Source: a virus
UHGV virus genome: UHGV-0311374
Reading direction: 5' to 3' (one strand)
DNA length: 12,033 nucleotides
The notes beneath the pieces were generated by a model. That model saw only the letters and a program-made list of their open reading frames with translations. It had not been told where the DNA came from and made no database searches. The translations under genes and the position numbers were made by a program. Shown here one piece after another: positions 16 through 1,055 of this stretch (positions are counted from its first letter, which is position 1; each line of letters opens with the position of its first letter).

Positions 16-195
16 TTATTCTGATTCTTTGGCCTTGCGACGCTGGCGGTATTCAACTTCCCGCTTTAATGCAGCTGTAACAAACTGCCCTGTACTTTCG
101 CCGGGCATTTTTACCGCCTCAACATTGTTCATAACTTCATGTGGAACCCTTGCCGCAACTGTTTGTGATTTTGCGTTTACTGCTTTTGTCGCCAT
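16..195 (-). CDS. Putative small DNA-binding regulator, ribbon-helix-helix-like (59 aa from ATG at 195; GTG at 204 would give 62 aa)
   Basis: Minus-strand ORF MATKAVNAKSQTVAARVPHEVMNNVEAVKMPGESTGQFVTAALKREVEYRQRRKAKESE; pattern of a short N-terminal strand (TVAARV) followed by two short helices and a basic tail resembles Arc/CopG-type RHH proteins; diverges from an operator-rich intergenic region. Fold assignment is by eye only. Confidence 0.4.
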   Translation of the reverse strand: MATKAVNAKSQTVAARVPHEVMNNVEAVKMPGESTGQFVTAALKREVEYRQRRKAKESE

Positions 196-245
196 GTTGA
201 GCACCCTTCATAAAAAACAAATGCAGTATGCAGGAAAAAAAATAA

Positions 246-297
246 GTGTTCAACACTTGACGTGTTTAACACCTCGATTTAAATTGGTGTTCAACAC
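246..297. promoter_or_regulatory. Three copies of 11-bp palindrome GTGTTNAACAC (246-256, 262-272, 287-297) overlapping putative divergent promoters
   Basis: GTGTTCAACAC at 246-256 and 287-297, GTGTTTAACAC at 262-272, read directly. Rightward -35-like TTGACG at 257-262 with a 17-nt spacer to -10-like TAAATT at 280-285; on the other strand TTGAAC (inside the first palindrome) lies 17 nt from CATACT, pointing toward the leftward gene. Promoter calls are inferred from weak consensus matches. Confidence 0.5.
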
Positions 298-394
298 CTT
301 ATTAAGGCAAGGTGTAGAAACGACGAAACCCCGCACTGTAGGAGCAGTAACGGGGCTTCTAACCACCAACGATAACGAGAGTATCGAGGTAGCT

Positions 395-598
395 ATGTTA
401 AATCATACCACACACCCGCAAGGGCGGGACTCGCACAACCTGAATAAATACATCTGGCGTTTTATCGCCCTGAGCACCGCACAACCGCGCGTAATTCACA
501 TCGTGGCCACCAGCGAACAGGAAGCGCGTCAGCAATCTCCTGATGGCTGCGTGATGGTATTCGCCGCCCGTATTCGTCAGGGGTCACATCATGCGTAA
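395..598 (+). CDS. Icd-like small protein (host cell division inhibitor Icd family-like), 67 aa
   Basis: ATG at 395 preceded by GAGG about 7 nt upstream; product ends ...YIWRFIALSTAQPRVIHIVATSEQEARQQSPDGCVMVFAARIRQGSHHA, which matches my recollection of Icd-like proteins of P4-like and cryptic prophage elements. The longer 29..598 ORF is rejected because its 5' part overlaps the operator/promoter region and the opposite-strand regulator. Confidence 0.5.
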   Translation: MLNHTTHPQGRDSHNLNKYIWRFIALSTAQPRVIHIVATSEQEARQQSPDGCVMVFAARIRQGSHHA

Positions 599-884
599 AA
601 ACCGCTTGCAAAAAATTATCACGGGGCTGTATGCTTCCCCCGTCGCCCACATGGCGACCGGGTTTGACAGCCTGAATACTACAGCGGACAGCCGCTTACA
701 TTCCGATATGCGGTTTTTTTGTGTCCGTAAACCTACCCATACCCGCATTATGGCGGGGCGTAACGGGGGAGCCTTTGCGCTCGCTGGTTCCTGTAGTGCC
801 AGTCTGTCAACCCTGTTACGTCTCGCCACCATGTTTGACAGCGTAGTAGCGAGACTCCTTAATTTCACTACAGGAGCCTTTCAC

Positions 885-1055
885 ATGGCTGTATTCACAC
901 GCCCTTATTTTGTCTGGCGCTTTATGCAGTGCCACCACAGCAACATCGATGTATTCACCGTTACCGCTGCCACTGAGCGCGAAGCACGTGCACAGCTGCC
1001 GCACGCACATCTTATTTTTGTCGCCCGTATTCGTCAGGGGGTGTTCCATGCCTGA
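885..1055 (+). CDS. Icd-like small protein, paralog of 395..598, 56 aa
   Basis: ATG at 885 with AGGAG 8 nt upstream; product MAVFTRPYFVWRFMQCHHSNIDVFTVTAATEREARAQLPHAHLIFVARIRQGVFHA aligns along its length with the C-terminal region of the 395..598 product (WRF...EARxQ...FxARIRQGxxHA). Confidence 0.5.
   Translation: MAVFTRPYFVWRFMQCHHSNIDVFTVTAATEREARAQLPHAHLIFVARIRQGVFHA

Follow-up and report, generated by a model that had tools for sequence, protein, structure and literature searches.

The window, as we call the whole 12,033-bp stretch analysed (UHGV-0311374), carries all of its large ORFs on the plus strand. The products recognized with Pfam are a DUF927 primase, SSB, an HK97-type capsid protein, a prohead protease, a portal, head-completion and connector proteins, HNH, TerS and TerL, and a Pfam and ORF survey found no tail genes within the 12,033-bp window. 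Bases 1-394 are 99.5% identical to E. coli IAI39, in which an integrase and an AlpA-type regulator precede the same gene string; the IAI39 locus lies between roxA and phoQ and ends at phoQ, and there, as in related loci, alpA is convergent with the small leftward gene considered below. Because the window and its IAI39 relative show the gene set described in 10.1101/2022.09.08.507074, that is, a primase together with the element's own capsid, protease, portal, connectors, HNH, TerS and TerL and no tail genes, the window is by gene content a capsid-forming PICI (cf-PICI). For EcCIEDL933, induction and transfer depend on a helper phage and on AlpA (10.1101/2022.09.08.507074). Of 5,426 complete E. 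coli genomes, 568 (~10%) have a place where 80% or more of the control module, in the version seen in the window, is covered.

At the left end of the window, a short minus-strand gene diverges from the plus-strand operon, and the region between them contains two predicted promoters and three candidate operators:

16..195, minus strand: YlcI/YnfO-family gene of 59 aa (ATG at 195, stop at 16-18), encoding a predicted RHH DNA-binding protein and candidate repressor
225..253, minus strand: predicted leftward promoter P_L of the RHH gene (-35 TTGAAC at 253..248, 17 nt, -10 CATACT at 230..225)
246..256: candidate operator O1, GTGTTCAACAC, abutting the rightward -35 on its upstream side and containing the leftward -35 TTGAAC
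257..285, plus strand: predicted rightward promoter P_R (TTGACG at 257-262, 17 nt, TAAATT at 280-285)
262..272: candidate operator O2, GTGTTTAACAC, inside the 17-nt spacer of P_R
287..297: candidate operator O3, GTGTTCAACAC, beginning 2 nt past the -10 and covering the expected start site of P_R

The palindrome GTGTTNAACAC has exactly three exact matches in the 12,033-bp window, at 246-256, 262-272 and 287-297. Its expected count is 0.01, and none of 200 dinucleotide shuffles reached three copies. There are no copies with one mismatch anywhere in the window, and allowing two mismatches adds three further sites, which is the chance level. One of these operator-like sequences, ATGTTGAGCAC at 194-204, lies over the start codon of the RHH gene; L002 does not share it.

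In a promoter scan, P_R was the only sigma70-like plus-strand site in positions 1-700, and no other plus-strand promoter-like site was found between 380 and 1700. P_R heads the string of Icd, C4 RNA, primase and capsid genes. P_L, with 8 of 12 consensus matches, narrowly misses the threshold of the scan and was identified by reading the sequence; it is weaker than P_R, and its -10 aligns with a TATACT that is conserved in nearly all related loci. We also considered the palindromes as iterons or as a packaging site, and set both ideas aside because the register of the repeats with the -35 and -10 hexamers is fixed in every class of related locus.

The leftward ORF at 16..195 is, judged from its relatives, a real gene, and its homologues all begin MATKAVNAKS. 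The 59-aa product matches the YlcI/YnfO family (NCBIfam NF041551) over residues 9-50 with 59.7 bits, against a cutoff of 30, and RefSeq labels the IAI39 and CFT073 orthologues as members of this family, a small one with 78 clusters at 50% identity among 1.8 billion representatives. A search of the literature found no published function for YlcI/YnfO/DUF3950. In Pfam the window protein has no RHH match at E<=0.1, its sole match, Med10, being spurious; in the PDB there was no match by sequence or profile search or with Foldseek. Distant relatives do give weak Pfam matches, to RHH_1 (0.0029), CopG_antitoxin (0.00046), PSK_trans_fac (0.00029) and also RHH_5. An AlphaFold (AF2) monomer model (pLDDT 81.7) contains confident helices at 19-28 and 35-58, joined by the turn P31-G32-E33-S34-T35, in which G32, S34 and T35 are invariant in 27 homologues and which conforms to the G-x-S/T/N turn of RHH proteins. 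The best structural matches of the model are the RHH proteins and antitoxins CopG, omega, ParD and TacA, at 9-18% identity. We infer the N-terminal strand, because the inter-subunit ribbon forms only in the dimer and the monomer model lacks it. An RHH fold is thus likely on the strength of the model, with residues 10-16 (SQTVAAR) as the putative recognition segment.

The preliminary description had placed palindromes at 246, 262 and 287, over the -35 of a leftward promoter and over the spacer and downstream edge of a rightward one, beside a leftward RHH-like gene. Every coordinate proved accurate and all three repeats are exact copies of GTGTTNAACAC, with O1 holding TTGAAC, O2 in the spacer and O3 past the -10. 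As for the gene product, the model resembles RHH domains and the turn is present, but the window protein itself has no RHH family match.

Some relatives of the protein are long forms of ~100-110 aa (L037 1516-1821 and L039 1516-1821, both E. coli, and P0087, P0089, P0082 and P0096), in which a helical hairpin is inserted between helix B and the basic C-terminal tail; this hairpin could be an extra oligomerization or sensor element. Natural tandem RHH fusions were sought for folding as pseudo-dimers, but the two-stretch matches turned out to be these long forms and not tandems.

We compared the control region across 35 loci encoding relatives in Enterobacterales genomes, with several further E. 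coli loci and nine added by exact protein look-up. Across the ~35 related Enterobacterales loci the layout is kept at fixed offsets while the sequence of the repeat varies by class. One operator copy immediately adjoins TTGAC, between -76 and -78 relative to the start codon of the RHH gene, in all 29 loci tabulated. A second copy, in direct or inverted orientation, lies 21-25 bp further, over the start site at -98 to -103, in nearly all loci. In most classes other than that of the window, a third copy is found at about -32, immediately past the TATACT of the leftward promoter. The window lineage lacks the -32 copy and instead has O1 at -61, an offset shared by L001, L002, L006 and L047; Kosakonia and Klebsiella loci have copies at both -32 and -61. 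The hexamer elements TTGAC and TAnnnT recur at the same register in related loci. In Klebsiella, locus L033 combines this promoter-operator layout with a YlcI-like variant of the protein (IRFPHE...NFSAWV). In L004, L005 and L024, three of the fetched loci, a homologue is encoded but the layout is absent, and L015 and L025 have each lost a site.

All operator copies within a locus belong to the same class, and they change together with the N-terminal segment of the protein. The classes, given as residues 10-16 followed by the operator, are:

SQT[VLI]AAR: GTGTTNAACAC
S[KR]KLEAR: GTGTCAGCCAC
SKRFDVR and SKKIDVR: GTGTCNGACAC
SQK[LV]Q[AT]R: GTGGA[CT]TCCAC
SQKIQAR in two loci (L029, L031): related TGGA-N3-CA sites
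SQKMSAR: CTGGCACCCA
SQ[SA]LK[SA]R: GTGTGGCCCAC
SQSVTAR: GTGTAAGACAC
SQLTTVR: GTGTGTTTCA

The outer GTG...CAC and Arg16 are nearly constant, and the variation is in the inner bases and in residues 11-15; some operator classes are imperfect palindromes. Related satellites carry the protein-plus-target cassette in at least ten specificities. The window's own motif, GTGTTNAACAC, occurs in 4 of 42 loci, where it is confined to the control region, and all four of these loci encode SQT[VLI]AAR.

For four loci not used in deriving the class rule, P0040 (E. coli), P0054 (Salmonella), P0035 (Klebsiella) and P0037 (Proteus), the operator was predicted blind from the protein, correctly in every case. The window and E. 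coli L037 form a natural recombinant pair, with identity of 100% at 1-30, 33-73% at 61-300 and 90-100% at 301-570. The exchanged block of ~250 bp comprises RHH residues 1-48, the operators and both promoters, with no other gene inside, and the flanks of the exchanged E. coli cassette are otherwise near-identical. The first downstream ORF does not track operator class. The Icd-like ORF, which carries the PHROG label 'transcriptional repressor', was rejected as the binder: in 30-nt windows the Icd1 region of the window and L037 is 83-100% identical, yet the operators differ. Among the protein columns, residue 14 tells most about the operator core (z 8.2). Divergence in the rest of the protein, however, correlates with operator distance (r 0.60) no less well than residues 10-16 do (r 0.42), and a partial Mantel test to single out residues 10-16 was not significant (p 0.11), so that these sequence comparisons show protein and operators to be inherited and replaced as one unit and do not show which residues read the bases.

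The features downstream of P_R are as follows:

293..394, plus strand: structured 5' leader, with hairpin 1 at 294-315, the GC-rich hairpin 2 at 325-359 and hairpin 3 at 365-390
395..598, plus strand: first Icd-like ORF, 67 aa (NF033153, 71.8 bits), the first gene of the rightward operon
629..678, plus strand: a1/b1-type C4 target (Rfam RF03163, 46.8 bits; gathering score 46.7)
746..833, plus strand: C4-type antisense (immunity) RNA, a P1 c4 homologue (Rfam RF01695, 72.3 bits; gathering score 45)
885..1055, plus strand: second Icd-like ORF, 56 aa (NF033153, 56.7 bits)

The leader, with a minimum free energy of -30.3 kcal/mol (z -2.3), presents a Shine-Dalgarno in the loop of hairpin 3. Of 19 consensus pairs in an alignment of 22 loci, 13 have compensatory changes; the structure is conserved and the sequence is not, and no Rfam family matches positions 293-394. 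A conserved UCUAACCACAAC follows hairpin 2, and CCA pairs with the start-codon region. The loop of hairpin 2, GCACUGUAGGAG (335-346), can pair at 12 of 12 positions, three of them G-U, with a loop of the C4 RNA, UUCCUGUAGUGC (~787-798); it is a possible third C4 target upstream of the first Icd-like ORF, although the match may be due to chance.

In most related loci, too, the operon begins with an Icd-like ORF. Over ~654-843, which includes b1 and the C4 RNA, the window matches the c4 region in phages P1 and D6 at ~80% DNA identity, and cross-talk with P1-like phages through this stretch is a possibility. The C4 RNA is complementary, through its loop, to CACUACAGGAG (868-878), the Shine-Dalgarno of the second Icd-like ORF, and also to UGUUUGACAGCG (831-842) further upstream; both are therefore read as a2/b2-type targets. 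The C4 RNA in its entirety and its targets fall inside a 154-aa ORF (591-1055) that RefSeq labels 'Icd-like' in relatives. Because its Icd-like match is confined to residues 107-149, the real second Icd-like gene probably starts at the ATG at 885. With no other promoter-like site between 380 and 1700, P_R is, as far as the sequence can tell, the head of an RNA immunity module of the P1 immI or P4 type, followed by the primase.

What is directly observed is the set of sites, how they are arranged and conserved, and how they co-vary with the protein; from this we infer a fold, DNA binding, a sign of regulation and a role in island silence. Our preferred reading, to which we assign a probability of roughly 70%, is that the 59-aa product is an autoregulated RHH repressor acting at the three GTGTTNAACAC operators. 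RHH dimers would occupy all three sites. Occupation of O2 in the spacer and O3 at the start site would block RNA polymerase at P_R and so silence the string that runs from the Icd-like ORF, the C4 RNA and the second Icd-like ORF through DUF4222, primase, SSB, capsid, protease, portal and HNH to TerS and TerL; occupation of O1, which holds the -35 of P_L, would give negative autoregulation. The N-terminal half of the protein and its operators would form a ~250-bp specificity cassette whose exchange among Gram-negative PICIs creates distinct 'immunity' classes. The block would most likely be lifted downstream of AlpA, the published activator. Read-through or interference from an AlpA-activated promoter is conceivable as the route of induction, though speculative; we found no informative terminators between alpA and the RHH gene. 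When searched against the PDB, the PICI AlpA has a sole match, 8c3t, an 'AlpA family phage regulatory protein' (E 2.5e-6).

The preliminary description had proposed an RHH-like regulator with operators on divergent promoters, serving as an 'induction checkpoint' for a rightward replication and packaging operon. The co-variation, the fixed geometry and the four successful predictions strengthen the first part, in which binding is predicted. The second part finds partial support: the operators lie on the promoter heading that operon, but P_R first drives the C4/Icd module, and the published inducer is AlpA.

The C4 layer complicates the simple reading as a switch, because tight repression of P_R would stop C4 synthesis too. 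The protein might instead be a feedback or set-point regulator like Arc or Cro, with silence enforced mainly by the C4 RNA and released by AlpA. Several observations fit this view: P_R is the only promoter-like site ahead of the C4 RNA and its targets, the small gene has a weak promoter of its own that is apparently autoregulated, and EcCICFT073 is induced by AlpA alone. In P4, moreover, the CI RNA is processed from a constitutive early transcript. However, with one operator copy right on the spacer and another on the start site, the arrangement resembles tight repression and not tuning, and the gene is divergent, as is that of Mnt, and does not lie inside the operon it would control, as do those of Arc and Cro. 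We therefore regard a set-point role as unlikely, though deserving of weight.

Helper phages control PICI induction, and a host or helper-phage factor could read the sites, with the small gene no more than their neighbour. A single host factor is excluded by the presence of at least five operator classes within E. coli alone. Searches of 50,697 phage records returned neither a homologue of the 59-aa protein (tblastn) nor a match to the window's control region (blastn). Because the RHH gene is also the only gene inside the exchanged cassette, we think it very improbable that either kind of factor is the reader.

AlpA is a DNA-binding protein required for the expression of downstream PICI genes, and the palindromes could in principle be the sites at which it activates P_R directly. 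Operator class is, however, uncoupled from AlpA sequence in both directions. AlpA is identical or near-identical in L031, L029 and L017/L022, yet these loci represent three operator classes, and the CFT073 and IAI39 proteins are ~93% identical with different operators; conversely, the AlpAs of the four GTGTTNAACAC loci are only 31-65% identical. In addition, alpA lies outside the exchanged cassette, and the spacer and +1 are positions for a repressor and not for an activator. Direct action of AlpA at these sites therefore has very little to recommend it. We give equally little credence to an antitoxin-like autoregulator of a leftward two-gene module, comprising the RHH gene and a downstream small ORF, that would overlap P_R by accident. 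In its favour, RHH antitoxins are the best structural matches and a small ORF does follow the RHH gene on the same strand in IAI39 and CFT073. But this partner shows no conservation, alpA being the next gene in Xenorhabdus; conservation is highest for the sites on P_R and not for those on the protein's own promoter; and the window lineage has lost even the copy at the leftward start site.

The proposed RHH repressor and its operators can be compared with several known systems. The closest in layout is P22 immI (Mnt/Arc, with divergent Pant/Pmnt), in which a small RHH protein is divergent from the operon it controls, short symmetric operators lie over the -35/-10 of the target promoter and over the protein's own promoter, and an antisense RNA forms a second layer. 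The window likewise has a divergent small predicted RHH gene, symmetric sites on both promoters and an antisense RNA. In contrast to P22, however, the 59-aa protein has no detectable homology to Mnt or Arc (no PDB or Pfam match), there are three dispersed 11-bp sites in place of one 17-21-bp operator, and the operon encodes Icd, C4 and primase and not an antirepressor. In content the closest system is P1 immI (C1-controlled Op51/P51, c4, icd, ant), with which the window shares an a1/b1 target, a C4 RNA that is ~80% identical, a2/b2 over the next Shine-Dalgarno and Icd-like ORFs; unlike in P1, the window promoter carries three palindromes, and an RHH cassette would take the place of the C1 operator. 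A primase lies downstream as in P4, whose immunity is based on CI RNA.

In Stl proteins, which are larger and of the helix-turn-helix type, one domain binds a phage protein, and repression is thereby released. By contrast, the 59-aa protein shows no homology to Stl and is too short to include a sensor domain, and in Gram-negative PICIs induction goes through AlpA. The parallel with Stl/Rpr of SaPIs is a functional analogy: a regulator divergent from a satellite replication and packaging operon and acting on divergent promoters (PMC6092414). CopG, omega, ParD and TacA, the structural matches, are small dimeric autoregulators that act through short repeats; the similarity is one of fold only, and their genomic role differs. 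Members of the window protein's own family, NF041551, include YlcI and YnfO (DUF3950) of the K-12 cryptic prophages DLP12 and Qin. Unlike the window gene, K-12 ylcI (L042, MG1655 580251-581379) is divergent from nohD, with the DLP12 cos between them, and lacks a comparable operator layout; in lambdoid prophages, for this reason, the family may serve another purpose.

EcCICFT073, the prototype PICI (L041, E. coli CFT073, NC_004431.1 1380473-1381052), also contains the divergent YlcI/YnfO-operator-Icd module. Its YlcI/YnfO gene, C_RS30120, is divergent from the Icd-like gene (C_RS30120 and C_RS30125 are later-series RefSeq locus tags), and its operator, GTGGGCCACAC, is found in the spacer and at +1, with a degenerate copy past the TATACT. 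According to PMC6092414, EcCICFT073 induction requires AlpA as an activator and overexpressing AlpA is enough to trigger excision and replication; that paper calls the contrast with Gram-positive islands a mystery. AlpA was still treated as the sole master regulator in 2025 (PMC11773190), and PMC10111431 records C4/isrK-type immunity RNAs in Gram-negative PICIs but mentions no protein repressor. In the searchable literature we found no description of an EcCICFT073 repressor or of this module, and nothing linking the YlcI/YnfO family or any RHH protein to Gram-negative PICIs.

The module would be of the classical repressor-operator kind, widespread and, in the searchable literature, undescribed. 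In a bolder reading, which we hold to be less likely than not, YlcI/YnfO RHH proteins are unrecognized repressors of Gram-negative PICIs, both classical (EcCICFT073) and capsid-forming, encoded in ~250-bp cassettes of ten or more hetero-immune classes, with AlpA overriding the lock. If this is true, Gram-negative PICIs have a repressor layer after all, analogous to the Stl of Gram-positive islands. The module bears on a stated gap in satellite biology: a possible repressor layer in these elements, the means by which AlpA would overcome it, and the possibility that the operator classes define immunity groups among satellites in the same cell. For the uncharacterized YlcI/YnfO (DUF3950) family it suggests a function that can be tested, and the classes offer a natural series linking types of residues 10-16 to operator sequences that could be used to study RHH recognition.

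In two Salmonella loci (L045/L046, 467-1375), the operon headed by this RHH-operator module opens with a KilA-N protein and not with an Icd-like ORF; the cassette therefore combines with different downstream modules. Between alpA and the main module, some E. coli satellites contain a further small RHH-like gene, distinct from the first (VSTHKNERRGNPPFQFRL...) (L038 831-1010 and 1010-1200; L043 2185-2364; L001 11537-11759). This gene has its own palindrome-rich region (TGTGTATATACACA), a copy of the leader hairpins and a truncated Icd-like ORF, and the set looks like a tandem or remnant control module.
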